DNA of 58,089 bases from contig JAJUHS010000001.1 in assembly GCA_029267755.1 (NCBI GenBank), positions 1-58,089 of the forward strand. The letters run 5' to 3'. This stretch comes from Clostridiales bacterium (GTDB lineage Bacteria; Bacillota; Clostridia; Oscillospirales; Oscillospiraceae). Both the position numbers and the translations under genes were made by a program. How positions within the stretch are numbered: the first letter of the stretch is position 1; each line of letters opens with the position of its first letter. Shown in pieces: positions 7,366 to 54,153 of this stretch. Under the pieces are notes generated by a model. That model had not been told where the DNA came from, did no database searches, and worked only from the letters and a program-made list of their open reading frames with translations.

Positions 7366-10300
7366 TTATTTATCGGGGTTTGTGTTTGCCGCGTCTACGT
7401 TTCCGAATATAACCATCGTCTGATCTTCAGCATACCAGGTTGCGGTCAGAGCCTTAAAGGCCGGGATGGAGGAAAGATTCTTAGCAGTCGTATAAAGTGC
7501 TCCATTCTTTTCAACGACTCCGGCGATTGAAGCCGTGATACCGGAAACATCCGCGCCTATTACCCTTGCGACATAGGAAACCGGGATATAGGGCGTCCCC
7601 TTTTCGTCAAGGATCAGAGGGGTTTTAATTCTGCGGTCTACATAGTTTACAACAGCAGTGTCCGAGCCCGGGGTGAGAACGATTTTAGTCCCCTTTGGGT
7701 TGCCCTTAAGCCATTTGTCGAGGTAATTCAGAAGTCCCGCCTTGACGACGGCCGTTTTGCCGTAGTTGCCCTGAGTGTTTCCGTAGTAGAACGTAAGCAC
7801 GCCGTTGTTCTGAAGCTCCTTAAAGGTTCGCATTGACTGGTTGTTTGTTATGTTCTGCGCCCCGCCGAAACCACCGTAGAGCGCCATCACGGGATCGTCC
7901 GGCGAAACATAGCTTATCGGGCTGGTCTCAGCTGCGCGCTGGATCGCAGCAAGAATCTCCGCGACGGTGTAGGTGTAGGTTCCGAGCGTGGTTACCGTTC
8001 CGGCTGCGAACAGACCGTCGGTGGTGCCGAACGGGAACCAGCGTTCTCTGTAAGCGCTATCAATTGTAAACGTATAGCATAGCTCGCCCTCACTGTTTTC
8101 GCAGAAATGATATGCTCTTCCCTCAGTGTTTGCAAGACTGCCGTTTATGCCTTTCTTGTAGAGTTCATACTGCTCCATAAAGTTTCTGAGCATAAGGAAA
8201 CCCTTTCCGGCTCCGTACCAGTTAATTGCACTTGCGGCCGGGGCGTTCTCCCCGTCACCTCCGCTTATCATCGAGGCGAGCAGATCGGTTCTTCCTGCGT
8301 TGTCCGTACGCTGGTCAAGGCCGAAGTTTATAAGGTCGGTCCATCCGTAACCGATTACCGCGGCCTGTACGCGGCTTGAAATGCCTGTGTTTCCGCCGAC
8401 GCCGCCTTCAATGGAGCTATAAGCGCCAACTGCGGCTCCAAGAGATGAGTTTCCGCCCAGCGACTGTCCGTAGAGAGCGAACTTCTCGGAGTTGAGGTTA
8501 TACTTATCCGCGTTCGCCCGCAGGAACCTGACGTTGCCGCTGATATCCGCGTACCAGTCGGGAGTGCACTCTGGCGGATAAGCTCTGAGGTCAACGCCCG
8601 CTACGGCATAGCCGTTTGCGAGGCAGGCCATAAGGAAGGAATCTATTCCGCTGATATCGCCGCCGTAGCCGTGAACGAATATCACCAGCGGTACGGCGCC
8701 TGACTTGGCCTCATTTGGCAGGTATATGTTGATATTGAGGCTCTTCATAGTTGGCAGGTACAGTCCGTCGGTAAGCGGCTGTATCCCGATCCTGGTCATC
8801 TGCACCCTGTTGAAGCTCGGGAAAGCCACGCCTCCCCTTGCCATTCCGCCAGTATAATCCTGCGCCCTGCCGTTAAACTGTATAGCCTCCGGCTCAAATA
8901 CGATTCCAGCATCGTCGAAGGTTGCCTTGCTGATGACCGTTCCGCCGGAAATAGTCTCATACCTTACGGTGTATCCGTCGACTGGCAGCTTAATCCATGT
9001 GCCGTTGTAATATAGATGCTTGGCGTCGCTGAAGAAATACATCGTCCCAGCATACTGGGCTCCCGAGGCAAGTGTAACCGTACCATTATAGACGTTTGAG
9101 TTCTTCTCGGTCGTCGGAAGCACTATGCAGGAAGGGCTGTCTCCGCCTGTGCCGATCGTAATTTCGGTATCCGAAGAAACATTCAGCTTGAAGTATGTGC
9201 CCGCAGCGTATGATTTTGTTATGGCATCCGTAAAGTCGACCTTTACGTTTACCGGGTTGCCGGTCATATCTACGGACAGATTTTTGCTTACTATTGCGCT
9301 GCTTCCGGTTTTGGAGCCAAGTTCTATTGAAACAGCCAGATTTGCCTTAGTGCCGGCTGCGCCGGTAACCCACAGGTAAGCCTGAGCGAAGCCGACGAGC
9401 TCAAGGTTGGAACCGCTGGTGCTCATGTTGGGCGCAGAGCTGAAGCTGAGGCTCTTGCCGCTCATGGAAGCCGCCGTATCCGGAAGCGCCGGATTCAAAG
9501 TGCCGGAATTTCCGCTTCCTCCCTCCGCTATGGAATCAAGGTCGTCAAGGTATAGCTTTGAATAGTTTTCCTCTTCGGTCGGGAATGTGTTGCTGTACCG
9601 CCAGCTGGCTGCTCCCTTCAAGTCGGGAACATTGTAATAATACTTCGGGGCTGAGCTGTTTGTGTTGTTTATAAGCACGCCCTGATTGTTCCAGCCCTCT
9701 GCCGCGGTATAGTAAGATGTATCGCGTATAGTCTTGCTCTCCTGAACAGTATTTTTGGGCGGAGTGGAAATCATCGTCTTTGCGAGAAGGTTGCCGTTTG
9801 CGTATGAAACAGTGACTATACCGTATGAGCCGGCAAGCCTGCCATGCTCAGGCAAAACCTTCCCGTTGCTGTCGTACCATGGTATGTAGGAGCCTTTTTT
9901 GCCCGCCGGATAGTATTTTACCGCAAGACCGGTTATGGAGGTTACATATTTGACCGTGCCGTAAATATGTCCGTTTACTGTCATCGTCTGTCCGGGAACT
10001 TCATAAGCCGGAACTGTGCTTCCGATAAGTGAACGCAAAAGCTCAAGACTTATCCATGCGGCGCCGTCCCGCTCAATTACCGGCTGGACATCGGAGGACG
10101 ACGAAACATAATTCGCAGCTACGTTGTACTTCCTTGTTTTGCTGTCTGCCGCATAAAGGGCTATTTTCGTATCCTCGGGCTTGTTTTTAAGATATGTGTC
10201 CAGATACGCGTCTATGGAAGCGCAGACCTCCTCCATGGAGCCGTATGCGTAGGCGCTGACGCCCGCCTGAGTGTTCGCAGCCTCGAAAGCGGTCGCATCC

Positions 10301-12363
10301 ACATCGCTGTAAGCCTTCATCGTGCGCGTAGTCTGGTTGTTCGTAATATTCTGACCGCCGCCGAAGCCCGCGAAGGCCATGATGTTGCTGGAAGCCGCAT
10401 TGATGTGGTAAAGGGGGCTTGCGGCGTAGGCGCGCTCTATGGCCGCAAAAAGCTCGTCGGCCGTATAGGTATAGGTCCCTTTCGTAATGACGGTGCTGCC
10501 GCCACCGTATGCGTTTGGTCCGAGAACCGCAAACCACTTGCCGATATAGGCATCGTCAACTATAAATGTATAGTCAAGCCTGCCGTCCGCTCCGGTCGAG
10601 AAGGTGTAGGCCTGGCCGTTTAAGTCTGAAAGGCTTCCGTTTATGCCGTCTTTGTAATCCTTATACTGCGAAATAAAATTTCTCAGCATAAGAAGTCCCT
10701 TTCCCGGGCCGTACCAGTCGATTACCTCCGCCGCAGGAGCGGTTTCGCCGTCGCCTCCGCTGAGCATATTTGCGATCTTTGAGGCGGGGTCTCCCTCCTG
10801 GTCCTCGCGCTGGTCAAGGCCGAAGTTGATCAGGTCCGACCAGCCGTAACCGACGACGGAAGCCTGCACGCGGCTTGAAACGCCGATATTCCCGCCCACC
10901 TTGCCTTCAATGTCGGGATCGTCGCTCGATACCGCAGCCATCAGCGCGGAGTTTCCCCCCAGCGACTGACCGAATACCGCAAGCGTGTCCGGGTTAAGTC
11001 CGTACTTTGCGGCGTTCGCGCGGATATATCTGATGTTGCCCTTGATATCCGTGTAATGGTCGGGTGACACGTTCGACGGATAGTTGCGAAGATCAATGCC
11101 TACGACGGCGTAGCCCTTGGCGAGCATAGCGGTCAGATAGGTTCCTATTGCGGAATACTGCCCGTTGTAGCCATGGATGTAGAGTATCGCAGGATAGCCG
11201 CCATTCGGCGCCGCTGCGGTGGGAGTGTATATTACGCCGCGGAGTATCTTATATCCGGGCATGTAGAGCAGATCCGCCGCAGGCGTTATCTTCACCGTAT
11301 CGAGATAGTAGAAGTTCGGGAACGGCAGCGTGTTTTTCGCGTTTCCGGTATAGCTCTGAACCTCTCCGTTTCTGACCATATTGCCCTGCACGAGGAATTT
11401 TATCGTCTTTTCGAGCCCCTTGAACTCGGCGGCATTGTCTGCGCCTACAGTATACCTTGTGCCAGTTGGAAAAGATATCCAGCTGTCATTCTGCGTATTT
11501 TTCGTGTAGTTTATGTAGGTTCTGCTGCGGAAACGGTACATGGTACCGTTATAAGTTTTGCCGTCGATCGTAACCGCTCCGTTTAAAACGTTCTCGGTAT
11601 TGTCGACAAACGGGATGGTGACCGTTGAACCGTTTGCGCCGGAGGCGAAGGTGACCGTCACATTTTTTCCATAGAGGACAACGCGCATGCTCCCGTCTGC
11701 GAGGTTATATGCAACATAGTCGGAGCTGCGGTTTTCACAGGCCTGCTTGAGGTCAATATGCACAGCGGCGCTGCTGGAGCCGCTTTTGATATTTGCCGTT
11801 CCCTTGGCAATCACTGTTGCGGCTCCGGCTGCGCTCACATACTCAAGGGCTACTGTGACGTCTCCCCCTTTTTCGGAGCTTACAACCAGATCAGCAAAGG
11901 GATATCCCACAATATACTGGTTGCCGTACATCCTGTACATTAAGGACGAACTGAAGGTCGCGCCCTTGGAGTCGGGGATTCCTGAGGAATAATCGGTATC
12001 CAGACTGACGGTAAAGCTTCCCGCCTCGGGAACTGCCCACGAAAGAACCCCCGGATAGAGCGAGTCTATTTTGGAGCCTATCTCCGCGTTTTTCGAGTCC
12101 TTGACGTCGAGATAAAATTTAGTGTTTATGTAGTTCGTCGAAGGTTCGTTCGCGGGATCCGAATAGTCCTTACCCTCCTGCACGGTCAGGGCTTCAAGCG
12201 ATTCTGCGTAGAAGGATTTCGTAGTGTTTCCCACTGTGAAGAAATAATCGGGCGCCTTGGTTTCTATGGTGCTGTTGGACTCCGCGAACGCCGTCGGGAC
12301 GAGCGCCATGCTCATCGACGCTGCAAGCAGTATCGAAACGATTCGCTTTTTGTTCTTTTTCAT
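7366..12363 (-). CDS. Secreted giant protein: internal tandem duplication carrying two alpha/beta-hydrolase (GxSxG) modules
   Basis: Signal peptide KKRIVSILLAASMSMALVPTAFA. HGY motifs (LYIHGYNG and IFVHGYGG) and nucleophile elbows (FGQSLGGNS and YGQSLGGNS) are each exactly 834 codons apart. Start set to ATG 12363, 6 nt after GGAGG; the ORF-track start at 12369 is TTG. Confidence 0.8.
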   Translation of the reverse strand: MKKNKKRIVSILLAASMSMALVPTAFAESNSTIETKAPDYFFTVGNTTKSFYAESLEALTVQEGKDYSDPANEPSTNYINTKFYLDVKDSKNAEIGSKIDSLYPGVLSWAVPEAGSFTVSLDTDYSSGIPDSKGATFSSSLMYRMYGNQYIVGYPFADLVVSSEKGGDVTVALEYVSAAGAATVIAKGTANIKSGSSSAAVHIDLKQACENRSSDYVAYNLADGSMRVVLYGKNVTVTFASGANGSTVTIPFVDNTENVLNGAVTIDGKTYNGTMYRFRSRTYINYTKNTQNDSWISFPTGTRYTVGADNAAEFKGLEKTIKFLVQGNMVRNGEVQSYTGNAKNTLPFPNFYYLDTVKITPAADLLYMPGYKILRGVIYTPTAAAPNGGYPAILYIHGYNGQYSAIGTYLTAMLAKGYAVVGIDLRNYPSNVSPDHYTDIKGNIRYIRANAAKYGLNPDTLAVFGQSLGGNSALMAAVSSDDPDIEGKVGGNIGVSSRVQASVVGYGWSDLINFGLDQREDQEGDPASKIANMLSGGDGETAPAAEVIDWYGPGKGLLMLRNFISQYKDYKDGINGSLSDLNGQAYTFSTGADGRLDYTFIVDDAYIGKWFAVLGPNAYGGGSTVITKGTYTYTADELFAAIERAYAASPLYHINAASSNIMAFAGFGGGQNITNNQTTRTMKAYSDVDATAFEAANTQAGVSAYAYGSMEEVCASIDAYLDTYLKNKPEDTKIALYAADSKTRKYNVAANYVSSSSDVQPVIERDGAAWISLELLRSLIGSTVPAYEVPGQTMTVNGHIYGTVKYVTSITGLAVKYYPAGKKGSYIPWYDSNGKVLPEHGRLAGSYGIVTVSYANGNLLAKTMISTPPKNTVQESKTIRDTSYYTAAEGWNNQGVLINNTNSSAPKYYYNVPDLKGAASWRYSNTFPTEEENYSKLYLDDLDSIAEGGSGNSGTLNPALPDTAASMSGKSLSFSSAPNMSTSGSNLELVGFAQAYLWVTGAAGTKANLAVSIELGSKTGSSAIVSKNLSVDMTGNPVNVKVDFTDAITKSYAAGTYFKLNVSSDTEITIGTGGDSPSCIVLPTTEKNSNVYNGTVTLASGAQYAGTMYFFSDAKHLYYNGTWIKLPVDGYTVRYETISGGTVISKATFDDAGIVFEPEAIQFNGRAQDYTGGMARGGVAFPSFNRVQMTRIGIQPLTDGLYLPTMKSLNINIYLPNEAKSGAVPLVIFVHGYGGDISGIDSFLMACLANGYAVAGVDLRAYPPECTPDWYADISGNVRFLRANADKYNLNSEKFALYGQSLGGNSSLGAAVGAYSSIEGGVGGNTGISSRVQAAVIGYGWTDLINFGLDQRTDNAGRTDLLASMISGGDGENAPAASAINWYGAGKGFLMLRNFMEQYELYKKGINGSLANTEGRAYHFCENSEGELCYTFTIDSAYRERWFPFGTTDGLFAAGTVTTLGTYTYTVAEILAAIQRAAETSPISYVSPDDPVMALYGGFGGAQNITNNQSMRTFKELQNNGVLTFYYGNTQGNYGKTAVVKAGLLNYLDKWLKGNPKGTKIVLTPGSDTAVVNYVDRRIKTPLILDEKGTPYIPVSYVARVIGADVSGITASIAGVVEKNGALYTTAKNLSSIPAFKALTATWYAEDQTMVIFGNVDAANTNPDK

Positions 12364-12401
12364 ATTCAACCTCCATTCTTTATTTGGGCGAGACGTATAA
12401 C

Positions 12402-17070: not shown

Positions 17071-19281
17071 TCAGTCGGCGATTACCACGCGCACCTTGCA
17101 GCCCTTGTCGGCATCGTAATATACCGTAAGGCTATCTGAGCGAGAGCGTGCGCTTGCAAGCGTCGTCCAGCTGTCGATGCTTTCCACATATACCTGAACG
17201 TCATCGCTGACAGGTATCGTCGTGCCGTTGATATTTACATAAAAGTTTCCATACACATCCTCAGTAAAGTCGGAGCGGCCTATTCCTGTCGCCTTTGTCA
17301 GCTTTACATAGCTGCCCAGATTGCCGCTCTTGTTAAGAGAAATACCGGCGTATATTCCTGAGTAAAGATCCGAATTCCCGAGAACCGTCGACGAGCCGTC
17401 AGAATTTGTAAGTGTAACAGTTTCGTTTGTTACCGAGAAACCTCCCGAACTGGTCGTTTTAGAACCTATATCTATATATCCGTATCTATAGGCATCTCCG
17501 GTCACGTCTCTAAGGACGATAAGCGTGACATTATTTGCAGCGTCATACGACGCGTAGTAGATTTTTGAGCCCGATATTGTTTTGGCCGTAATATCGTCGA
17601 TATCCACCTCCGCAGCGTTACCGTCTACTATCCAGTCGATTATTTTAACCGACGGAGAGAGCCTGGCGCTGCCCAGCGTTTTATCGCTGAGATTCAGAGT
17701 AGAGGATACCGACTTTTCGGTCAGGTTTGCAAGACTGACATAGCCCTCTCCTGAGGAGCTTACAGAAAACAACATATTCTTATAGTTCGCTGCGCTGGTG
17801 TCGTTGATTTTACCGCTCACCGTAATTCCGTTTACCAGCTTTAAAGTTACTTTGGAGGAAGACGCGCTCGTCACAATTCCGATATTTGCCGCACTCAGTG
17901 TGCTTGTCGAAACTGCTCCAGCCACCTTGTTGTCCGCTGTCAAAAGCAGAGTAACGTTATCTCCGACACTGAATTTCGAAAGTGATGAAACGGCGCTGTC
18001 CAGAACCTCAAACTCCGCTCCGAGCACCGTGACCGTGCTTGGGGTATCGTCGTTAGGATACGCATCGTCATACCTTCCGCTTATCTTTTTATCCGATACG
18101 TTGTAAACCTGGGAGCTGGAGACATATGATATGACATCATAGGGGCAGACGTCGGAAGACGTAACCTCATAGCCGTTTTTATAGATTTTGGCCGAGGACG
18201 GGAAGGTATAACCGTTTGAAGTCGCTATCGCGGTTATATCCGAATCTGAGCCCGACGAGGCGACAAGAACATACTGAACCGTTCCGCCGTCCGAGTAATA
18301 CGCCGATACCGACATTCCCTTTTCTATGTTGTACCATTTGCTTGAATAGTCCGCCTTTTGCCCGTCCATATAGAAGGTCGGCGAAGAAGTCATGGAAATC
18401 TTGGTACCGTTTGAGCAGCTTATATAGGACGCGGTTGTATCCGTCACAGTCGAGGTTATCGTGGTCCCATCGGCCGCGGGTATGAACGTCAGCGCCTTCC
18501 CCGCCGAATTCAGGACGAGGGTGCCGAACTTTCCGACAAGGGCAGACGGGACGCTGTTGACCTTCAGATACGTCCCCGAAGACGCTCCGGCAATTTTTAC
18601 TGCGCCGGTCTGGCCGCTGTCAGTCGTAGCGTTGCCGCTCACTAGAAATACGTTTTCGACGGTTGTCACCCCGGATATCGTGGATGCGTAGGTTTTGGCG
18701 GAACCGTTTACCTTGCAGCTAAGCATGTTTGCAAACAGTACCGCCGCCTCGCCCCTTGTAATTATCGAATTTCCATAACTGGATACTCCATCCGTTAGTC
18801 CGACTTCCCCTGCCTTGCTTATGTAATCGTCAGGCCATTTCGCTCCCACGTCCGTACTCTTATACCCCAGCACTCTCATAAGCACCGTGACGGCCTGCCC
18901 GTAGGTAATCACGTCCTCGGGTCCGAAGTAACCGGAAGGATAACCCGACATTATGCCGGCGTTCCGCACCGCAAGGTTTACATAACCTGCTTCCCAGGAG
19001 GTAGCCGGAACGTCCGGAAAGATCGTATAGCCCGAGTACTGAGAAACTTTTGCGGAAAGTCCCATCGTAACTACCGCTATTTTGCAGAACTGCGCTCTTG
19101 TCAGCGTGCCGCTGAGGTCAAGAGATCCGCTTCCGTCGCCCTGCATTGCGCCCATCATTTGAAGTATCGCCGCCGATTCGTTTGCGTCTTCGGCGGACGA
19201 ATAAGCCGAAGCCTTCGGAATCACGGTTATGAACGATAAGCATATTGCCGCTGTGAGAACAAAACTTATTATTTTTTTCAT
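17071..19281 (-). CDS. SLH-domain cell-wall protein with Ser/Thr-rich beta-type C-terminal region
   Basis: Start moved to MKKIISFVLTAAICLSFITVIPKASA (ATG 19281, RBS GGGGAGAG). About three SLH segments (LTRAQFCKIAV.., FPDVPATSWEAGYVNLAV.., ITRGEAAVLFANML). The ORF-track extension to 19422 overlaps the permease gene. Confidence 0.8.
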   Translation of the reverse strand: MKKIISFVLTAAICLSFITVIPKASAYSSAEDANESAAILQMMGAMQGDGSGSLDLSGTLTRAQFCKIAVVTMGLSAKVSQYSGYTIFPDVPATSWEAGYVNLAVRNAGIMSGYPSGYFGPEDVITYGQAVTVLMRVLGYKSTDVGAKWPDDYISKAGEVGLTDGVSSYGNSIITRGEAAVLFANMLSCKVNGSAKTYASTISGVTTVENVFLVSGNATTDSGQTGAVKIAGASSGTYLKVNSVPSALVGKFGTLVLNSAGKALTFIPAADGTTITSTVTDTTASYISCSNGTKISMTSSPTFYMDGQKADYSSKWYNIEKGMSVSAYYSDGGTVQYVLVASSGSDSDITAIATSNGYTFPSSAKIYKNGYEVTSSDVCPYDVISYVSSSQVYNVSDKKISGRYDDAYPNDDTPSTVTVLGAEFEVLDSAVSSLSKFSVGDNVTLLLTADNKVAGAVSTSTLSAANIGIVTSASSSKVTLKLVNGITVSGKINDTSAANYKNMLFSVSSSGEGYVSLANLTEKSVSSTLNLSDKTLGSARLSPSVKIIDWIVDGNAAEVDIDDITAKTISGSKIYYASYDAANNVTLIVLRDVTGDAYRYGYIDIGSKTTSSGGFSVTNETVTLTNSDGSSTVLGNSDLYSGIYAGISLNKSGNLGSYVKLTKATGIGRSDFTEDVYGNFYVNINGTTIPVSDDVQVYVESIDSWTTLASARSRSDSLTVYYDADKGCKVRVVIAD

Positions 19282-19307
19282 TTGCCGTTTTCTCTCCCCT
19301 ATAAAAT

Positions 19308-20501
19308 CTAATCCGCGCGCAAAGCCACGACCGGCTGAAGCCCGGAAGCCTTTATCGCCGGATAAAGCCCAAAACCAATGCCTATCGCTATCGAAAAGGC
19401 GAAGGACGCGCAGGTTATCCATGCCATAGGCAGCAGAATCATATCGTACATTGCTTTTCCGACAATCAGGGTTATGATAAAGCCGAATATTATGCCGATT
19501 ATCCCTCCAAGGGCGGAAAGCATGCCCGACTCTATCAGGAATTGCGTTATTATTGCTTTTCTGGTGGCTCCTATGGCCTTTCTTATACCTATTTCCCTTG
19601 TTCTTTCCGTTACGGTAACAAGCATGATATTCATTATGCCTATACCGCCGACAAGAAGCGCAATACTTGCGACGGCGCCGAGCACAAGACTCAGGGAAGC
19701 CGTTTCATCGTCGCTCGCTTCCATCTCGGTGTTTTCATTGGTAAGCTTAAATTTGCCCATGGTGTCGTCGATTTTTGCGTCAAGGAAGGCATTGAGCTTT
19801 GTGTAAAGTGCTGTCATCGAGGTTGCGTCCACCGATTTTACCGTATAGGCGGAAACGGCCACTGTGCCGAGCACCTCTTTATTAAGGGTATATGGCATGA
19901 CGATGGCGTCGTCCATCGAGGATTCCGTAGTGCCGTCCTTCTGGTAATAGACTCCGACAACCTTAAGCGGAAGGGAATTAAAATAGATGGTTTCCCCTAT
20001 CGGATTCTTGTACCCGAACAGCTCCTGCACAATATAGCTGCCTATGACGCAGACATGGTTTGCACTCTGGACATCCATATACGAAATGTCACGGCCCTCC
20101 TTCAGGTCATAGTTGTTGCATAGAGAAAACTGCTCATTTCCGAGATAAACGGTGGATGTGTCTTCAATCGTGCCGCTTCCGTACTGGATAGTGCCGGAAG
20201 TCTTCATGGCGGGAGACACTCCGCTCGCGAGGCCGCTTAAATCCTTGTTGACATATTCGTAAAGCTTGTCATACATCTTTACGGAATCGCTGAAGTTGTA
20301 CATTGTCAGGGAAACCGATATCTTGTTTACGCCCATCTTTTCGTAATATTGGGTTATATCGGCGTTGTAGCCCTGCATAACCGACACCAGGCCGATAACC
20401 GAGGTCACTCCGATAATTATTCCTAGCATTGTTAGGAAGGAACGCACCTTATTGATGCGAATGGTCGCTACTGCCATCTTGAATGACTGAAGCAAATTCA
20501 T
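19308..20501 (-). CDS. ABC transporter permease, FtsX/MacB family
   Basis: N-terminal TM, large extracytoplasmic domain and C-terminal FtsX-type TM bundle (ERTREIGIRKAIGA). Overlaps the ATPase stop by 4 nt. Confidence 0.85.
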   Translation of the reverse strand: MNLLQSFKMAVATIRINKVRSFLTMLGIIIGVTSVIGLVSVMQGYNADITQYYEKMGVNKISVSLTMYNFSDSVKMYDKLYEYVNKDLSGLASGVSPAMKTSGTIQYGSGTIEDTSTVYLGNEQFSLCNNYDLKEGRDISYMDVQSANHVCVIGSYIVQELFGYKNPIGETIYFNSLPLKVVGVYYQKDGTTESSMDDAIVMPYTLNKEVLGTVAVSAYTVKSVDATSMTALYTKLNAFLDAKIDDTMGKFKLTNENTEMEASDDETASLSLVLGAVASIALLVGGIGIMNIMLVTVTERTREIGIRKAIGATRKAIITQFLIESGMLSALGGIIGIIFGFIITLIVGKAMYDMILLPMAWITCASFAFSIAIGIGFGLYPAIKASGLQPVVALRAD

Positions 20502-23157: not shown

Positions 23158-24723
23158 ATGCCCGGCCTGCAGTATCTGCTCAACCTGCTCGGAGATAATG
23201 TTACAGATTCCAGGATAATCGTACCCGTTCCTCTGTCCGACAAAATTGAAATCTTGGATGATCAGGACTACCTCTGTGCCGACACAGTATATATCGCGCC
23301 CTCGGTGACGGCAGATCTGTTTCTGCGTAAGGAACCTGTCATTGAAGACGGCGCGCTTTTAATAACTTCCGATACGGATTCGCTTCTCAACGATGAGCTT
23401 GTTTCGAGATTCCCCATCAATCTGATTCAGACGCGGATGAAGTCCGCCGCTTTATATAACCTGCTGAGCAGGATGTTCAGGAAAATAGAAGCATGGGAAA
23501 GAAATTTTGAGCGCTTATCCCGACCCGGCGCAAATGTCCGGGAAATTCTGCAATATATCGCAGATGAATCCGGGGCGTCGGTCTACCTTATCGAGGACGA
23601 AAGATACACCTCCGTCAGCCGAAACGAACGCATTTCGGCATGGCTTGCATCAAACTTTTTCAGAAACGGAGTTCTGAACGAGAAGTGGATAGCGGAATTC
23701 AAAAATGCCTGCACCCCGTGCGGCGGCTTCCTTAGGCATTATTCCGACAAAATGGGAATCGCTGTTTATTTCAGGCAGATTCAAAACCGCGGCGGCTTGG
23801 GCCTTTACATTGTTCTCGCCTATGAAAACTCCGGAAACCTTGACCATGCGTTCGGCAAGCTAGCCGTGGACACCATCTCAGCCAAGCTTAGTTCCGGAAC
23901 CGACCCCGCCCTGCTCGAAGATTCCTCTGCTTTCGGAAAATTCTGGCAGGACATCTTAAGCAAAAAGTATATCGGCAAAACTGAAATCTATGACCAGCTC
24001 AACAAGTTTCGGAATTCTCCTCTGCTTTTCGTGCGTGTGATTCTTATTGTCTTCGAAAACAAGGAATGGGACGATGCGGCATGCTGGAAGATTATATGCC
24101 AGCTGAACGAGCTTTTTCCCGGCTGCACCATTACCTTCGGCGGCGGCGAGGCCGTCATACTAATGTATCACAACGAAAGGATATTAAACCTCAAACTGGA
24201 CGAGCCCAAAATAAATGCGTTCCTGATGAAATACGACGCCTATATGGCCGTAGGCAACAATACCCGCGACTATTCCATGCTGCGCACTCATTACCTTCTC
24301 TCTAAGCGCACCATATCTCTCGCAAAAAAGCTTAATGTCGAAAAAGAGAGCAGAATATGCCGTCAGATAAGATATAATGAATACTGCATAATCGATTTCT
24401 GCGTCGAGCGGTTTGTTGAGGAGTTCGGCCACGACGACATCATCTATCTCATGCACCCCGCGGTCGTCCAAATCTTAAGATACGATAAAAAGTACAACAA
24501 TAATCTCGAGGATGTGCTACATTCCTATCTTATCAACGACTGCAACGTTACAAGAACCGCGGAAGAAATGTATATGCACCGCAATACTATAATAAATAAG
24601 ATTAACAAGATCATGTCGCTTATAGATGCGGATCTGAGCGACCCTAGAGTCCGCCAGCAGCTTCTGTTCTCTCAGCAGGTGCTTCGGTACTATGAAAAGG
24701 TTATGAATCTTGAAGTCAACTAG
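23158..24723 (+). CDS. PucR/CdaR-family transcriptional regulator
   Basis: C-terminal HTH region LHSYLINDCNVTRTAEEMYMHRNTIINKINKI is typical of PucR C-terminal domains. RBS GGAAGGAG. Confidence 0.7.
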   Translation: MPGLQYLLNLLGDNVTDSRIIVPVPLSDKIEILDDQDYLCADTVYIAPSVTADLFLRKEPVIEDGALLITSDTDSLLNDELVSRFPINLIQTRMKSAALYNLLSRMFRKIEAWERNFERLSRPGANVREILQYIADESGASVYLIEDERYTSVSRNERISAWLASNFFRNGVLNEKWIAEFKNACTPCGGFLRHYSDKMGIAVYFRQIQNRGGLGLYIVLAYENSGNLDHAFGKLAVDTISAKLSSGTDPALLEDSSAFGKFWQDILSKKYIGKTEIYDQLNKFRNSPLLFVRVILIVFENKEWDDAACWKIICQLNELFPGCTITFGGGEAVILMYHNERILNLKLDEPKINAFLMKYDAYMAVGNNTRDYSMLRTHYLLSKRTISLAKKLNVEKESRICRQIRYNEYCIIDFCVERFVEEFGHDDIIYLMHPAVVQILRYDKKYNNNLEDVLHSYLINDCNVTRTAEEMYMHRNTIINKINKIMSLIDADLSDPRVRQQLLFSQQVLRYYEKVMNLEVN

Positions 24724-24784: not shown

Positions 24785-24813
24785 TTGACAGAAGGTAATA
24801 TTCCGTTTATAAT
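24785..24813 (+). promoter_or_regulatory. Consensus sigma-A promoter of the amt leader
   Basis: TTGACA (24785-24790), 17-nt spacer, TATAAT (24808-24813). Confidence 0.65.
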
Positions 24814-24852
24814 TTGTATAAAAGTAAGCAGTCGGTTATAAATCAATATTCT

Positions 24853-24905
24853 TAAAGACAATGGGGTCAAAACAGGCGTCTGCCGCGTTTTGATCTTTTT
24901 GTTTT
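24853..24905 (+). terminator. amt-leader attenuator unit 1 (GACAATGGGGTC box, hairpin, T-run)
   Basis: The box lies at 24857-24868. GGTCAAAAC (24865-24873) pairs with GTTTTGATC (24887-24895), followed by TTTTTGTTTT. Confidence 0.65.
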
Positions 24906-24936
24906 ATCGATTCAATCAAAACTTAATACTGTATAA

Positions 24937-24993
24937 TAAGGGACAATGGGGTCTGAACGCCTTTTGCGGCGTTTGGGCCCCATATTTTTTTGT
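24937..24993 (+). terminator. amt-leader attenuator unit 2
   Basis: The box lies at 24942-24953. GGGGTCTGAACGCC (24948-24961) pairs with GGCGTTTGGGCCCC (24968-24981) over 14 bp including G:U pairs, followed by ATATTTTTTTGTT. Confidence 0.65.
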
Positions 24994-25002
24994 TATTGCA
25001 TA

Positions 25003-25050
25003 TAAGACAATGGGGTCTGAACGCTTTTTGCGCTCGGGCTCTTTAATTTT
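25003..25050 (+). terminator. amt-leader attenuator unit 3
   Basis: The box lies at 25006-25017. GGGTCTGAACGC (25013-25024) pairs with GCGCTCGGGCTC (25030-25041) with one mismatch and some G:U pairs, followed by TTTAATTTT. It ends 6 nt before the RBS of the next ORF. Confidence 0.55.
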
Positions 25051-25073
25051 ATAATCAGAGGAGGTTTTTAAGT

Positions 25074-25376
25074 ATGAAAAAAGGGTTTTTAAGGCCGGCG
25101 GCACTCATCAACGCGCTCTTTGCTTTTTCAATTCTGATTACGGCTATGGGAACGGGCTTTGCTGTTTACAGCACGGTTAAAAATGTAAGCTTAAACGTTT
25201 TGACCTCACAGGTTCCCGGCGCGGTTTTTGGGGCAATCATCGCATTTTTGGGCGTGAGGTACCTTCTGGCGGTCAGAAAGCTGAAAGCGGAGGTTTTTAA
25301 AACCAAAGCCGAGTTTTCCCGGGACAATTTGGGGAGGACCCACCCGCAAAGCGTCATTAAAAAGCAGGTAGATTAA
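25074..25376 (+). CDS. Small membrane protein (100 aa, two predicted TM helices)
   Basis: Strong RBS GAGGAGG 9 nt upstream of ATG. Hydrophobic segments LINALFAFSILITAMGTGFAVY and VPGAVFGAIIAFLGVRYLLAV. Lies 25 nt upstream of amt. Confidence 0.6.
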   Translation: MKKGFLRPAALINALFAFSILITAMGTGFAVYSTVKNVSLNVLTSQVPGAVFGAIIAFLGVRYLLAVRKLKAEVFKTKAEFSRDNLGRTHPQSVIKKQVD

Positions 25377-25401
25377 AAATATTTTATATGAGGTGATTTT
25401 T

Positions 25402-27435
25402 ATGAAAAGGATGAAAAAAGCACTCGGACTTCTGCTGCTTATAGCGGCGATCATGGCACTTTTCGCGGTAACGGCGTATGCGGTCGAAGCCCCCTCCCCG
25501 GCTGATCCGACGGGAGCAAGCTACAGTACGCTGACCGGAGAAGAAACCCTCGGCGACGTCGCGGCTATCGCAGATACGGCAAAAAGCAGCGCGACCTACG
25601 TCTGGGTAATGATCTGCGCATTTATGGTTTTCTTCTTCCAGTGCGGGTTTGCAATGGTTGAGACCGGTTTTTGCCGCGGTAAGAACGCAGCTCATACCAT
25701 GACAATGAACTTTATGGTCTTTCTGGTCGGAGCCATAGGCTACTTCCTCGTCGGCTTTGCACTTCAGTTCGGCGGCTCAGGCGGCGCGGCGACACTCGGT
25801 TCCGGCGGTGCGGTGCTCGACGCAATGGTTTCAATCCCCGGCTTTGGCGGCATTCTGGGATACAAGGGCTTTATGCTTGGCGGTACTTATGATGCAGGCG
25901 TGTACCTCCTTTTCTTCTTCCAGATGGTGTTTATGGACACGACCGTTACGATTCCCACAGGCTCAATGGCAGAAAGAGTAAAGTACTCTGCCGTCATTAT
26001 CGCTTCGTTCTTTATATCCATGTTCTTCTATCCGCTTTTCGGTAACTGGGTATGGGGCGGCGGCTGGCTCTCGACTCTCGGCAAGAACTTCGGCCTCGGC
26101 CACGGCGTTGTTGACTTCGCGGGCTCGGCGGTTGTTCACTCGATGGGCGGTATGCTGGCCCTCTCCGGCGCAATAGTCATAGGCCCAAGAATCGGCAAAT
26201 TTAAAAAGGACGGCACTGCCAGGGCTTTCCCCGGGCACGACATCCCGATGGCGATTGTAGGTACGATAATCCTCTTTTTCTGCTGGTTTGCGTTTAACGC
26301 AGGGTCCACTCTGAACGCTTCCGACTTCCGTCTCGCGGTAGTCGCTACCAACACAATGATTGCGGGAGCAACAGGCGGTCTCGTCGCAATGTTCTATATG
26401 TGGATCAAGTACGGCAAGCCCGATCCTTCGATGACAGCGAACGGCGCTCTCGCCGGACTCGTCGCCATTACCGCTCCCTGTGCGTTCGTAAATGCTTTTT
26501 CTTCCCTTGTCATCGGCTTTATAGCGGCTATACTTGTTTGCATTTCGGTTCCCTTCGTCGAAAACAGGCTAAAGCTTGACGACCCTGTCGGCGCCATTTC
26601 GGTTCATGGAGTTAACGGTATCTGGGGTGTAATTTCCGTAGGTCTTTTTGCTGACGGCGTTTACGGCGACGGGCTCAACGGCGTACCGGGCGGCGTAACC
26701 GGCCTCTTCTTCGGCGGCGGCGCTTCACAGTTAATCGCACAGCTAATTGCGGTAGGCGTTCTCATAGTTTACGGCTTTGGCGTATCCTATATTTTCTATA
26801 AGGCGCTCGACAAGGTCTGGGGTCTTAGGGTTAAGCCGGAGGATGAGCTTGAAGGTCTCGATATCCCCGAGATGGGTGTTCTCGCATACCCTGACAGCCA
26901 ACTCGTCCGTTCGGAGCTTGACTATAACTCTTCAGACAACGCCCCTATAAGACAGCTTGAAAGATTCGGTAGCTGGACGAAAAAGGCTCTGCCCACGGCT
27001 CCCGCAAGCGTCAGCGCGGCGGTTCCCGTCGAACTTGTCGCAGGAGCCGCCCCCATTGCTTCCGACGTTAAGATTACGAAAATCGAGATCATTACAAAGC
27101 AGAGCAAGTTTGAGGCCTTAAAGGCAGCCATGAATGAAATCGGCGTGACCGGAATGACCGTGACCAATGTGCTCGGCTGCGGCATACAGAAGGGAAAAAC
27201 CGAATATTACCGAGGCGTTGAGGTTGAAATAAACCTCCTGCCCAAGGTGCAGGTCGAAATCGTCGTATCCAAGGTTCCCGTCAGAACCGTAATTGAAACC
27301 GCGAAAAAGGTTCTATATACCGGCCATATCGGCGACGGAAAGATCTTCGTTTACGACGTCGAGAATGTTGTCAAGGTTCGTACCGGTGAGGAAGGATATG
27401 CGGCCTTACAGGACGAATCGGATCTGGAAGCCTGA
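25402..27435 (+). CDS. amt: Ammonium transporter (Amt) fused to a C-terminal PII (GlnB/GlnK-like) domain
   Basis: Amt body (FQCGFAMVETGF, DFAGSAVVHSMGG, ISVHGVNGIWG). A linker of about 90 aa follows. The PII domain from 27070 reads KIEIITKQSKFEALKAAMNEIGVTGMTVTNVLGCGIQKGKTEYYRGVE...GDGKIFVYDVE. Start set to ATG 25402, 5 nt after GAGGTGA; the ORF-track start 25393 is a GTG inside that RBS. Confidence 0.9.
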   Translation: MKRMKKALGLLLLIAAIMALFAVTAYAVEAPSPADPTGASYSTLTGEETLGDVAAIADTAKSSATYVWVMICAFMVFFFQCGFAMVETGFCRGKNAAHTMTMNFMVFLVGAIGYFLVGFALQFGGSGGAATLGSGGAVLDAMVSIPGFGGILGYKGFMLGGTYDAGVYLLFFFQMVFMDTTVTIPTGSMAERVKYSAVIIASFFISMFFYPLFGNWVWGGGWLSTLGKNFGLGHGVVDFAGSAVVHSMGGMLALSGAIVIGPRIGKFKKDGTARAFPGHDIPMAIVGTIILFFCWFAFNAGSTLNASDFRLAVVATNTMIAGATGGLVAMFYMWIKYGKPDPSMTANGALAGLVAITAPCAFVNAFSSLVIGFIAAILVCISVPFVENRLKLDDPVGAISVHGVNGIWGVISVGLFADGVYGDGLNGVPGGVTGLFFGGGASQLIAQLIAVGVLIVYGFGVSYIFYKALDKVWGLRVKPEDELEGLDIPEMGVLAYPDSQLVRSELDYNSSDNAPIRQLERFGSWTKKALPTAPASVSAAVPVELVAGAAPIASDVKITKIEIITKQSKFEALKAAMNEIGVTGMTVTNVLGCGIQKGKTEYYRGVEVEINLLPKVQVEIVVSKVPVRTVIETAKKVLYTGHIGDGKIFVYDVENVVKVRTGEEGYAALQDESDLEA

Positions 27436-27565: not shown

Positions 27566-27594
27566 TTGACAGCGCCAAATGCATATGCTATCAT
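27566..27594 (+). promoter_or_regulatory. Sigma-A promoter of the BCAA operon leader
   Basis: TTGACA (27566-27571), 17-nt spacer, TATCAT (27589-27594) preceded by TGc (extended -10 type). Confidence 0.6.
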
Positions 27595-27630
27595 GAATCC
27601 AATTTATAGTATCTGAAAGGAAATCCTTCA

Positions 27631-27726
27631 ATGCTGTTGTCTGTTGTATCCATTATTATACTTAGCGTTATTCTTGGCATTCTTGTCATTGATAACGCTG
27701 GTTTTGGTTGCATACAGGCAGGTTGA
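27631..27726 (+). CDS. Candidate Ile/Leu/Val-rich leader peptide 1 (31 aa)
   Basis: My own translation: MLLSVVSIIILSVILGILVIDNAGFGCIQAG*. 16 of 31 residues are I/L/V. RBS GAAAGGAAA 7 nt upstream. Not in the ORF track because it is under 60 aa. Confidence 0.6.
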   Translation: MLLSVVSIIILSVILGILVIDNAGFGCIQAG

Positions 27727-27744
27727 TTGAATATCAGGATAATC

Positions 27745-27785
27745 AAAAGCCTTGTAGTGTAACCGCTGCAAGGCTTTATGTTTTA
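27745..27785 (+). terminator. Attenuator terminator 1
   Basis: AAAGCCTTGTAG pairs with CTGCAAGGCTTT (12 bp, one G:U) around an 8-nt loop, followed by ATGTTTTAT. Confidence 0.6.
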
Positions 27786-27820
27786 TATAGGAGTTCTGAA
27801 AAATGTTTAAGAGGATCCGC

Positions 27821-27928
27821 ATGGAAGGCATAATTATAATTCTTGTACTCGTTATCGTACTTATTATCGATAGCGTTGGTTCGGTTTTGCCTGATAGCGG
27901 AAGCTGCTTGAAAACCCAAACGGTTTAA
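27821..27928 (+). CDS. Candidate Ile/Leu/Val-rich leader peptide 2 (35 aa, or 41 aa from ATG 27803)
   Basis: MEGIIIILVLVIVLIIDSVGSVLPDSGSCLKTQTV* has 13 consecutive I/L/V codons. RBS AAGAGGA 6 nt upstream of ATG 27821. The in-frame ATG 27803 (MFKRIR...) follows TAGGAG. Confidence 0.55.
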   Translation: MEGIIIILVLVIVLIIDSVGSVLPDSGSCLKTQTV

Positions 27929-27934
27929 GTAAGC

Positions 27935-27973
27935 GGGGCCTAAGGTGAAACCACCTTAGGCCCCTAGTTGTTT
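27935..27973 (+). terminator. Attenuator terminator 2
   Basis: Perfect 13-bp stem GGGGCCTAAGGTG (27935-27947) / CACCTTAGGCCCC (27952-27964) with a 4-nt loop. The tail TAGTTGTTT is weak. Confidence 0.55.
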
Positions 27974-28001
27974 AATACGAATTGTTGAGGAGGATACTAC
28001 T

Positions 28002-46559: not shown

Positions 46560-49500
46560 TTACTTGTCTATCTCTACAAATATATCATGTTTCCCATTAT
46601 AATGGTATAAGTTTATTTCTTTTTCAGGATTTATTTTCCCGTCGACAGTTACCGATCTTCTTCCGGTTTTTTTGACCGTTATATTGAATTCACCTTTGTC
46701 CGTCCGCCATACGGCGCCGAAGCCGTCCCACGAATCTGGAAGCGCGGGTTCAATTTTCAGTTTTCCACCGCGAAGCTTCAGTCCGAGCAGCTCCTCCTCG
46801 ACCGTACGGAAGTACCATGCCGCCGCGCCCGTATACCAGTTCCATCCTGCGCGCCCGATATGCTGCGGATTTGAATAAACGTCCGCCGCGAGGACAAATG
46901 GCTCTGCCTTGTATATTTTCTGCTCATGCCCCGCCGGAAGAAGCGTTTTCAGCATTTCCCATCCCTCGTTATTAAGCCCCGTTTTAAGGCAGCCCATAGC
47001 AAGCCAAACCGCCGCATGGGTATACTGCCCTCCGTTTTCACGCACTCCAGGAACGTATCCTCTTATATATCCGGGATCGCTGCTTTCTCCCGAAAACGGA
47101 GGAGTAAAGAGCTTTATTATGCCGTTTTGCCGGTCGAGCAGCCGGTCGACAGCACTTTTTATGCCTGTTTCACACCTTTCCCTGTTGGAATACTTTGTCC
47201 ACGTTGAAAAGCTCTGCGCGATCGAATCTATTTCGCACTCGCCGTCGCCGGAGGCGCCAAGCGGCTTTCCGTCGTCAAAGTAGGCTCTTATGAACCACTT
47301 GCCGTCCCACGCGCCGTTTGCGGCCGAAGCAAAGGATTCGGCAGTCCTTTCGTAATGCTCCGCGAGCTCTTTTTCGCCAAGAGCGGTGCACAGTTCCGCA
47401 AAGCGCTCCAATACGTGAGCCGCGAACCATGAAAGCCAGACGCTTTCTCCCTTTCCTCCGATTCCCAGCCTGTCAAAGCCGTCGTTCCAATCGCCGGTGC
47501 CTATAAGGTTCAGTCCATGTTCGCCCGTACCGCGCGAAATAACCATATCGAGCGCTCGCCTTGCGTGGTCGAACACGCTCTCGAATACACCGCTCCTGCC
47601 CGGAAGCTCATAGCGCTCCGTTTCACCGGCTTTTAAAACCGGAGATGTTATATATTCCGCCTCGACATTGCAGAACCCAAGATCCCCCGTAACTCTGCAA
47701 AAGCGGCAAAGTGCGTAAGGCAGCCACAGAAGGTCGTCGCTGCATCTTGTCCGCACTCCCTTGTCGCACTGCTCGGAAAGCAGGTTTGGATGCCACCAAT
47801 GCTGCACATCTCCCTCAACGTACTGATGCTCGCATGCCCTTATTATCTGCTCTTTCGCAATATCAGGGTAGTGCTGAACTATGCATGACACGTCCTGAAG
47901 CTGATCCCTGAAGCCGTAGGCCCCGCCGTTCTGGTACATTGAGGTTCTCCCTAGTATCCGGGAGGCGAGGGCTTGATACAGCGCCCAGCCGTTCATATAC
48001 TTATTAAGGTTGTCATCCGGAGTCCGCACCGATATTGCGCCAAGCTTTTCGAGCCAAAATTTCTTTGTCCTTCGGAGCGCGTCCTCCGCTCTTTCGAGTT
48101 CAAGATAATCCTTGATTTTTTCCTTATCCTCGCAGCCGGATATGATAACCGCGGCATCACGGAGCTTGAAATCCGCGGAAACGCAGGAAACGGTCCGCGA
48201 CATTGAGCTTGAATCGGCAAAATCAATAAGCTTTTCCGAAAACGCCGTAATATGCCTAATTTCGGGAAACTCAAGATTGCCCCTGTTTTCGGCTATTATA
48301 AGCCCGTCTTGCAGTTCTATCCTTGTCCCGTTCTGAACGGTATCCGCCCCCAGCACAATATCGGTAAAATAATTGATCTTCTCTATTTCATGGCCGTTTT
48401 CAGCCTTTATTATCAATATCCGCGTATCGGAATCAGGCGGCACAAAGGCGGTTGTCCGGATTTTTGCCCCGTTTATCTCCTTTTCCCACTCGGTAAATCC
48501 GAATCCGAATGTGATGCGGCAGCTTTGGCCGTCCGCGTCCGCGAAAACGGAATAAGCCCTGCCGTCGACAAAAGCGCATATGCGTTCCGTACCGTCCGTG
48601 GCGAGAAGGTCGTTCTGCCAGACGTTTATTTTGTTTTCCCTTGCGTTCTTATACCACATATGGCCGGTGCCGCAGTCCGAGGAAATATATCCGAAGCTTC
48701 CGTTAGTCAGAATATTGCTCCATGACACTTGGGGCAGAGCGCCGCAGGTATTGATAACCAGGCTGCCGTCATCCTCGTAATGCAGCTCGACGCTTTCCGA
48801 GGATCTCAGTTCCTCCTTCCAGAAACGGTACTCGCGCGGGACTTCCGGCACTTCATACTGCTTTTCACTCTTTTCAGAACAATAGATCACTTTAGACGAT
48901 GCGCAAATAAGCTCGCCTAGGTTTCCGGCATCCACCACATATATTCCGTTCCCGATTTCACACTCCAGGCCAAGCTCCCTTAAAACTCCGGAGATCATGG
49001 TTTTGACCGGCCTGCGGTAATCCCCGCCGTCATTCGTCACAAACACGAGATCGCTTTTTATACCGCTGCGCCTTAGTATCATGTGGCTTCTCAAAAGCTT
49101 TCTCGCTTTTTCCGAGCAGTCCTCCTTATCCGCCACTACGGTAATAATGGGAATATCCCCGGATATGCCCATCCTCCAAAGCGCCTCTCTCGCACCCGTG
49201 GCCTGCTTTTCGCTTCCTTTATAATTCTCCCTTTTGAAAATCATTGTCTTAAGCAGCTCCATGGCGGAGGCGATATCGTGTGCATCGCCGCACAAGCTTT
49301 TCGCCGCTTCCTCTACCCTGTTCGCGGCGCAGTTTGCCGGAAGCTTCAATATGCCGGAAACGGCGGAAACCGCTTTGTCCGCGTTATCGTCCGCACAGAG
49401 CGCAAATCGGACATGCTCTTCCTCCGAGGGTTTGATTTGAATCTTCACTCTGACCAGAACGCAGGGATCCAGAACCGCGCCGAGCGTATTGCCGGCCGGG

Positions 49501-53996: not shown

Positions 53997-54153
53997 CTCT
54001 GATCTCCAAAAACCAATATTTGTAAATGCTTTGGAACCTGTGACAGTGTATAAGCTATTTTTCCTCTGGCATTTCACAAATATGCAGTTTTTTGTCATAT
54101 AATGGTCTTTTAATGTAAAGCAAAACTACCTGTCATAAAATGTTCTTTTACAC

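Follow-up and report, generated by a model that had tools for sequence, protein, structure and literature searches.

Three tandem hexaloop-terminator units, probably transcription attenuators of the ANTAR type, in the leader of an amt-PII operon from a Clostridiales bacterium

The sequence analyzed here (the window) is a stretch of 58,089 nucleotides (nt) from a Clostridiales bacterium (assembly GCA_029267755.1, contig JAJUHS010000001.1, positions 1 to 58,089). Near its middle lies an operon that encodes a small membrane protein and a fusion of an ammonium transporter with a PII domain (Amt-PII). The leader of this operon contains three consecutive units, each composed of a 12-nt box and a terminator hairpin that overlaps it. 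The elements of the leader and the two open reading frames (ORFs) that follow it are located as follows.

24785..24813, plus strand: sigma-70 consensus promoter, TTGACA, 17-nt spacer, TATAAT; 12/12 positions match
24857..24868, plus strand: box 1, exact 12-mer, predicted mini-hairpin GAC[AAUGGG]GUC with an ANTAR-type hexaloop (A1, G4 and a closing C-G pair)
24863..24906, plus strand: terminator 1, hairpin at approximately 24863-24897 with its 5' arm from G4 of box 1, then T-run TTTTTGTTTT
24942..24953, plus strand: box 2, same 12-mer as box 1, stem extendable to 4 base pairs (bp; GGAC/GUCU)
24946..24993, plus strand: terminator 2, 16-bp hairpin at 24946-24983 that starts inside the loop of box 2, then ATTTTTTTGT
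25006..25017, plus strand: box 3, same 12-mer as box 1, stem extendable to 4 bp (AGAC/GUCU)
25012..25052, plus strand: terminator 3, hairpin at 25012-25042 from G4 of box 3, then TTTAATTTTA; weaker than terminators 1 and 2
25074..25376, plus strand: small ORF, hydrophobic membrane protein of 100 amino acids (aa), no Pfam family; first gene under the predicted control, with the Shine-Dalgarno sequence GGAGG at 25060-25064
25393..27435, plus strand: Amt-PII fusion, 680 aa, PII domain C-terminal (Ammonium_transp 8e-110, P-II 2e-24); second gene under the predicted control

The promoter scan returned no other promoter-like site on the plus strand between 24500 and 25500, and the transcript is expected to start near 24820. 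Approximately 250 nt of leader separate the promoter from the small ORF. The 12-mer GACAATGGGGTC occurs exactly three times in the window, at 24857, 24942 and 25006, always on the plus strand and always within this leader; when up to two mismatches were allowed, a single further and unrelated site was found at 19899 (2 mismatches). Counted from the box on, units 2 and 3 are identical at 26 of 27 nt. A model that read the sequence without database searches had described this layout before (the original prediction), and the promoter, the three 12-mers and the sequence shared by units 2 and 3 all lie where it placed them. Its assignment of the downstream genes to nitrogen uptake agrees with the domain matches of the Amt-PII fusion. 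An extended -10-like sequence, TGTATAAT, is located at 24930-24937, 4 nt 5' of box 2, and could be an internal promoter; a transcript from there would begin inside box 2, and the promoter scan did not report the site.

A hairpin and then a T-run come after the box in each unit, as had been proposed. The predicted folding energies of the segments of units 1, 2 and 3 are -25.8, -35.3 and -20.7 kcal/mol, with z-scores of -4.0, -6.4 and -3.3, respectively, and 0/200 shuffled sequences folded equally well. A scan for consensus terminators reported unit 2 alone, with 16 pairs. The 5' arm of the terminator begins within the hexaloop in all units, with G4 as its first position in units 1 and 3 and A2 in unit 2; the earlier description of the GGGGTC end of the box as this arm is thus accurate for units 1 and 3 and has to be amended for unit 2. 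Since the terminator arms start inside the box loop, the box hairpin and the terminator cannot coexist, which is the exclusivity that had been noted. The isolated 3-bp hexaloop hairpin of the box is marginal (-0.6 kcal/mol), so it would not compete with the terminator unaided and a factor would be needed.

The Amt-PII protein was used as the query to collect orthologous loci, which gave 80 loci with 66-83% identity and, together with the window, 81 sources. They come mostly from uncultured Clostridia (Oscillospiraceae and allies) and include Papillibacter, Lacrimispora, Anaerocolumna and others. The leader windows of these loci were searched for terminators fused to the core C[A/G]ANGNNG, with the outer part of the stem unconstrained; the fusion of box and terminator is therefore a selection criterion of the searches and not independent evidence. 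This analysis identified 116 units in 65 of the 81 amt-PII leaders, with between one and five units per leader (one in 28 leaders, two in 27, three in 7, four in 2 and five in 1). The expectation of the original prediction that the units would be conserved ahead of nitrogen genes in relatives was thus borne out, and matches were present upstream of amt, glnA and the gene for type III glutamine synthetase (GS-III). At the two outer positions of the stem, 85% and 84% of the 116 units have complementary bases, compared with 36% and 41% in a control in which the same core pattern was taken from elsewhere in the loci. The stem occurs in several variants (GAC/GTC, AGC/GCT, AAC/GTT, GGC/GTC and GGC/GCC). 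When 110 distinct unit sequences were aligned, 90.9% of the cells were paired (78.6 ± 1.3 in shuffles), and the covariation score was 0.504, compared with 0.271 for shuffled alignments (0/500 shuffles reached 0.504) and at most 0.17 with slid partners. At pair 1, GC is found in 47 sequences and AU in 43; at pair 2, AU is found in 39, GC in 39 and GU in 16. The commonest loops are AAAGGC, AAAGAA and AAGGGC, and exact GGCAAAGGCGCC boxes are present in some orthologous leaders (L069). Whereas the sequences of the terminators diverge, the box is kept between families and in a second phylum.

The number of units varies between relatives. The closest relative of the window (L001) also has three units. 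The leader with five units (L062, positions 2109-2440) consists of tandem box-terminator units with a period of 71-72 nt and nearly identical inner copies, which indicates tandem duplication. The copy number of the attenuator therefore appears to evolve by tandem duplication, and units 2 and 3 of the window look like products of the same process.

Judged by its sequence, the box is a predicted ANTAR-type hexaloop hairpin of the form xxC[A/G]ANGNNGxx, which is a known kind of element. The target of ANTAR proteins has been described as two hexaloop hairpins of at least 3 bp, with A1 and G4 in the loop and a short linker between them (5-12 nt in eut; Ramesh 2012, PMC3369931). In EutV control, A1, G4 and the closing base pairs matter, and changing the closing pairs of the eutP P1 hairpin with pairing kept abolished induction (PMC3369931). 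The minimal binding unit is one hexaloop with a flipped-out G4 and a conserved A1, bound by an ANTAR dimer (Walshe 2022, PMC8934654). The published seeds for EutV, NasR and AmiR targets include CAC[AAUGGC]GUG and UAC[AAUGGC]GUA for P1 and AGC[AAAGAA]GCU and AAGC[AAAGGC]GCUU for P2. The boxes of the window have the same closing C-G pair and AANGNN loop as the EutV P1 and P2 hairpins in these seeds. A hairpin of at least 3 bp with A1 and G4 in a hexaloop, GAC[AAUGGG]GUC, is found three times in the leader, and in all three units it occupies the position expected of P2, where it overlaps the 5' arm of an intrinsic terminator and the two folds are mutually exclusive. The boxes also carry the sequence features required of the single-hexaloop site of Walshe 2022 and are predicted to be such sites. 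The same architecture, with a 3-bp stem, an AANGNN loop, overlap with a terminator and a position upstream of an amt operon, is shared with the box of the Geobacter regulator GnfR, and the letters differ. The original prediction had not recognized the box as any known RNA; this assessment is revised by the match to the EutV seeds and the GnfR box and by the operons with ANTAR genes in related loci (see below).

No family in Rfam 15 matched the window at gathering score. When the leader was searched at E <= 10, the matches were at chance level and to unrelated families alone (E >= 0.6), none of them related to nitrogen, and the absence of a T-box, glnA RNA, PyrR or other relevant match that had been anticipated was thus borne out. 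A CsrA/RsmA site was considered and ruled out, as GGA is absent from many homologous loops (AAUGAG, AAAGAC, AAAGAA, AACGGC) and the invariant loop positions in homologous units are A2 and G4 (both set by the search pattern), not a GGA core.

The genes that follow the box indicate what it controls. In the orthologous loci, additional boxes precede a second amt-PII gene, GS-III and a stand-alone PII gene. Metagenome contigs were scanned with the exact pattern AGCAAAGGCGCT N10-30 GGCGCCTTT, composed of the commonest box and its terminator complement, which returned at least 120 loci; in total, pattern and fold searches covered 200 loci. The genes located 3' of these boxes encode GS-III, GlnA, Amt-PII, a 1520-aa glutamate-synthase-like protein (GOGAT), asparagine synthase, aminotransferases and an SBP_bac_3 ATP-binding cassette transporter operon, among others. 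The box-controlled genes are thus a nitrogen-assimilation regulon. In 65 of the 80 orthologous loci, the gene immediately before amt-PII is a homolog of the small ORF, and from this recurrent position the small ORF looks like a conserved partner of the transporter. The Geobacter operon that is controlled by GnfR likewise opens with a hypothetical gene before glnK-amtB (PMC2995071).

Genes for ANTAR proteins were searched for among six-frame ORFs with an ANTAR consensus probe, which finds Rv1626, EutV, NasR and AmiR in the PDB. An ANTAR ORF is present on 7 of the 120 box-selected metagenome loci listed. Two of these contigs (L109 and L169) have the order promoter, box, terminator, glnA, ANTAR gene, and the Pfam ANTAR scores are 48 and 44 bits (cut-off 27.3). 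In the reverse search, one box-linked ANTAR protein served as the query, and seven genomic contexts of members of its family were retrieved. All seven are nitrogen clusters of the glutamine synthetase (GS)/GOGAT/carAB type, and in five of the seven promoter-proximal boxes are located at adjacent nitrogen operons. One box per strand is found in the divergent intergenic region between GS-III and GOGAT-glnA-ANTAR in L202-L204 and L206, a box lies ahead of GS-III or asnA-GS-III in L207 and L209, and in L208 a box precedes a GS-III-amtPII-asnB operon that is divergent from glnA-ANTAR.

The nearest named member of this ANTAR family is from Sphaerochaetaceae (Spirochaetota). On one metagenome contig (L104), a AGCAAAGGCGCT box lies upstream of GS-III with an ANTAR gene approximately 8 kb away, and the ANTAR protein is named as one from Sphaerochaetaceae. 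The system is therefore not confined to Clostridia and crosses phyla. The box-linked ANTAR proteins (L104, L109, L117, L169) are 189 aa long and give weak Response_reg matches. By eye, they have Asn at the position of the phospho-accepting Asp (..VVINTPL.., ..IIINSPL.., ..LVINAPL..), and to judge from these residues they may be pseudo-receivers under the control of a partner protein rather than a kinase.

Several observations weigh against assigning the leader to an ANTAR regulator. The search for ANTAR-domain ORFs found none in the window and, up to a distance of 3 kb, none near the 80 orthologous amt-PII loci, and two of the seven ANTAR-gene contexts (L201 and L205) have no box. In L205, the leader of the Anaerofustis GOGAT-glnA-ANTAR operon (1500-1580) contains, close to the promoter, a hairpin GAAC[UGUAAC]GUUC with a T-run after it; the loop is without A1 and G4, and the hairpin could represent either an unrelated terminator or a recognition loop that has diverged. 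Because the search pattern already prescribed [A/G]A.G.. for the loop and C-G for the closing pair, the invariance of these features is not independent evidence and only the two outer stem pairs are. The last point concerns the P1 hairpin, which is absent upstream of the boxes in the window and is not enriched in relatives, in agreement with the original prediction, which had seen an ANTAR-like hexaloop and no second hairpin. P1 is needed for EutV antitermination in vivo and in vitro, and its deletion or a change of the linker abolishes EutV control (PMC3369931; PMC8934654). Single-hexaloop sites are expected only where there is no kinetic race against the polymerase (Walshe 2022, PMC8934654), and the class described here sits in exactly such a race.

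The absence of P1 was found at several levels. Hairpins of at least 3 bp with an ANNGNN hexaloop in the leader of the window (24815-25075) are the three boxes and one hairpin over the Shine-Dalgarno sequence of the small ORF, with no other. This fourth hairpin, AAUC[AGAGGA]GGUU at 25053-25066, likewise shows A1, G4 and closure of the loop by C-G; the purine-rich Shine-Dalgarno sequence may by itself account for this hairpin, and by eye its conservation in the closest relative (L001) is not obvious. Among relatives, a hexaloop hairpin within 40 nt upstream of the box was found for 11 of 91 units (7.8 expected from shuffles) and, in a further count, for 9 of 88 units (7.6 expected). By eye, the upper terminator loops of the units inspected are approximately 3-8 nt long and variable, with no conserved A1 or G4, so no second hairpin is evident there. 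A few metagenome leaders (L081, L090 and L095) do have a convincing P1 and resemble canonical dual hairpins, which indicates that the search was able to detect it. In 58 of the 63 metagenome leaders with a recognizable promoter, the box begins 7-14 nt after the end of the -10 hexamer. This leaves no space for P1, and the hairpin is essentially the 5' end of the RNA. In the literature searched, we did not find ANTAR attenuators that lack P1 described for Clostridia. By these predictions, the leader belongs to a known kind of element, the nitrogen antiterminators of the ANTAR type, and represents a P1-less and tandemly repeated form that is undescribed in that literature. A more far-reaching version would be that a single hexaloop at or near the 5' end of the transcript suffices without P1 and that its reader is either a factor outside the ANTAR family or a divergent ANTAR protein with a pseudo-receiver, whose mode of action differs from that of EutV, which would amount to a distinct nitrogen-sensing antitermination system; we put this forward tentatively and regard it as rather unlikely.

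Some of these points would also fit an undescribed non-ANTAR RNA-binding regulator, specific to these Clostridia, that performs the same antitermination on the hexaloop hairpin: the lack of an ANTAR gene in the window or near the 80 amt-PII loci, the missing P1 on which EutV depends, and the two ANTAR-gene contexts without a box. However, the sequence of the hairpin matches experimentally bound ANTAR sites, boxes and ANTAR genes co-localize far above chance, and no other candidate gene recurs beside the leaders (a PucR homolog is found in 0/80 loci), so that we consider such a reader improbable. The original prediction had left the switch as dependent on either a factor or the ribosome, and of these the factor-dependent antitermination stands. 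The ribosome-dependent alternative, attenuation through MGS... mini-ORFs that start at the box ATGs, is based on correct translations, as each ATG in the window opens an ORF of 10-19 codons that runs through its terminator. No Shine-Dalgarno sequence precedes any of the three ATGs, however, and an ATG is present at loop positions 2-4 in just 31 of the 116 units and in none of the commonest loops; in many leaders the box is moreover at the extreme 5' end of the transcript. The ATG count and the absent Shine-Dalgarno sequences rule out a leader-peptide mechanism, to which we attach a negligible probability.

A small-molecule riboswitch in three copies, for example for glutamine or another nitrogen metabolite, would be in keeping with the nitrogen-assimilation context, and tandem riboswitch-terminator units are known in other systems. 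It is extremely unlikely here, given that the conserved part is just 12 nt with a 3-bp stem and has no other conserved sequence or pseudoknot partner, that Rfam gave no match at gathering score and none related to nitrogen at E <= 10, and that the lone hairpin is worth -0.6 kcal/mol. Hardly any likelihood is left for the boxes as DNA operators (GAC-N6-GTC palindromes) of a nitrogen regulator with the terminators incidental. The box is partly palindromic, and a gene for a PucR-family helix-turn-helix regulator (521 aa, 23158-24723) lies immediately upstream of the leader. Yet the half-sites (GAC, AGC, AAC, GGC, CAC) vary and stay complementary, even within one leader, the conserved part is the asymmetric loop, and the leader boxes are on the sense strand; stem covariation, conserved loop and sense-strand placement together rule out this reading. 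The PucR neighbor was also considered as the regulator of the leader and ruled out: it has a homolog in none of the 80 orthologous amt-PII loci and is for this reason probably unrelated to the attenuators. Finally, the repeats might be unregulated, with tandemly duplicated terminators that damp expression and form no switch. The near-identity of units 2 and 3 (26/27) and the five near-identical units of L062 speak for it to the extent that recent duplication explains part of the repetition. A strong promoter followed by three constitutive terminators would nevertheless silence a widely conserved operon, and the terminators diverge between families, whereas the box is retained among them and in a second phylum, which makes this option very unlikely.

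We therefore return to the ANTAR-type reading and consider it probable, from the sequence comparisons above, that the leader is composed of three serial, protein-dependent transcription attenuators of this type. In the proposed off state, with no active regulator, each unit would fold as an intrinsic terminator and the polymerase would face three of them in series, which would result in very low basal expression of the small ORF and amt-PII. In the on state, under nitrogen limitation, an RNA-binding antiterminator would clamp the nascent xxC[AANGNN]Gxx hairpin. The best candidate for this role is a small receiver-ANTAR protein similar to NitR, GnfR and EutV, with its gene in another part of the genome. 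Since the base of the terminator 5' arm would be formed by the 3' arm of the hairpin together with the loop from G4 (or A2) onward, the held hairpin would block the lower terminator helix beside the U-tract and the polymerase would read through. With three independent units in series, read-through would approximate the product of three probabilities, giving a tight off state and a steep response. The analysis shows the layout of the leader, the exclusivity of the two folds, the conservation and covariation of the box, its regulon and the linkage to ANTAR genes in related loci; from these we infer which regulator acts and that this genome encodes it, that nitrogen is the signal, and in which direction control runs.

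Comparison with described systems relates the leader to ANTAR attenuators and sets it apart in several respects. The eut leaders of Enterococcus faecalis, controlled by EutV/EutW, are the canonical dual-hexaloop antiterminator (PMC3369931; PMC8934654). Like them, the window has a hexaloop mini-hairpin with A1, G4 and conserved closing pairs (the eut hairpins are AC[AAUGGC]GU for P1 and AGC[AAAGGC]GCU for P2), the hairpin overlaps the 5' base of the terminator, and several terminators would be under one regulator. Unlike in eut, there is no P1 5-12 nt upstream and in related leaders the transcript often begins at the box; the three units are stacked in one leader, whereas eut units are spread through the operon; and the targets are nitrogen-assimilation genes instead of ethanolamine genes. 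In Geobacter sulfurreducens, nitrogen fixation is regulated through antitermination by GnfK/GnfR, of which GnfR is a receiver-ANTAR protein (Ueki and Lovley 2010, PMC2995071). GnfR binds RNA containing CAGGCAAGGGCGCC, and in the leaders of nifH, nifEN and hypothetical-glnK-amtB this box lies across part of the terminator (PMC2995071). There too, one conserved box, CAGGCAANGGCGCC (GGC[AANGGC]GCC), lies over the terminator, with a 3-bp stem and an AANGGC loop, and the hypothetical-glnK-amtB target resembles the small-ORF/amt-PII operon. However, the Geobacter leaders follow sigma-54 (-24/-12) promoters that are activated by GnfM, whereas the window and most related leaders have sigma-70 promoters; the stem and loop of the window are GAC/GUC and AAUGGG (GGG for GGC), the window has three tandem units, and the organism is a Clostridia relative.

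Other nitrogen-related ANTAR systems show a similar mixture. In NasR/nasF of Klebsiella and in NasT/NasS, an ANTAR protein overrides the leader terminator of a nitrogen operon through hexaloops, and the P2 loop of nasF is AAAGGC; these systems differ from the window in having a nitrate-specific sensor (a NIT domain or the NasS partner), a two-hairpin leader and a single attenuator. The glnA-nitR clusters of Clostridium and Acetivibrio (NitR; Clo1313_2030) have a receiver-ANTAR gene directly 3' of glnA in a GS/GOGAT cluster, and this glnA-ANTAR arrangement carries the box in L109, L169, L202-L204 and L206. In the literature searched for those species an antiterminator role is proposed and no RNA site is given. 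The window itself contains neither glnA nor an ANTAR gene. A model match upstream of an ammonium transporter of C. thermocellum was reported earlier (Ramesh 2012, PMC3369931).

Two further regions of the window are described for completeness. Downstream of the amt-PII gene, the leader of a leuA-ilvBHCD-leuACDB operon (27566-28001) has a near-consensus promoter at 27566-27594 and two small ORFs with a high content of Ile, Leu and Val at 27631-27726 (MLLSVVSIIILSVILGILVID...) and 27803-27928 (MFKRIRMEGIIIILVLVIVLIID...); a hairpin that resembles a terminator comes after each of them (27746-27777 and 27935-27964). This leader gave no Rfam match, to a T-box or otherwise, and may act as a leader-peptide attenuator in tandem form that responds to branched-chain amino acids, an arrangement unusual for a Firmicute. 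Two very long ORFs are located on the minus strand, at 7366-12369 (1667 aa) and 46560-54098 (2512 aa). An SLH-domain protein is encoded near them (17071-19422), which suggests that they are cell-surface proteins.

In the current model of ANTAR antitermination, P1 recruits the protein so that it captures P2 before the terminator folds. In the leader described here and in dozens of related leaders, the terminator is guarded by one hexaloop only, which is often the first thing to be transcribed. The genes behind these leaders include amt-PII, GS-III, GOGAT, asparagine synthase and amino-acid uptake genes. Provided that such sites function, an extensive natural class of targets does without P1, and searches that require two hairpins have overlooked a large part of the nitrogen regulon in Clostridia and in at least one lineage of Spirochaetota (Sphaerochaetaceae). 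Should the single-hexaloop system be true, it would be widespread in Clostridia of the gut and of anaerobic digesters and would contradict the dual-hairpin requirement for 'successive binding'. The stack of three units, with up to five elsewhere, would be a natural example of leakiness and steepness being tuned by attenuator copy number through tandem duplication. The box could also be used as a cis-element that predicts nitrogen-controlled genes in uncultured gut anaerobes.

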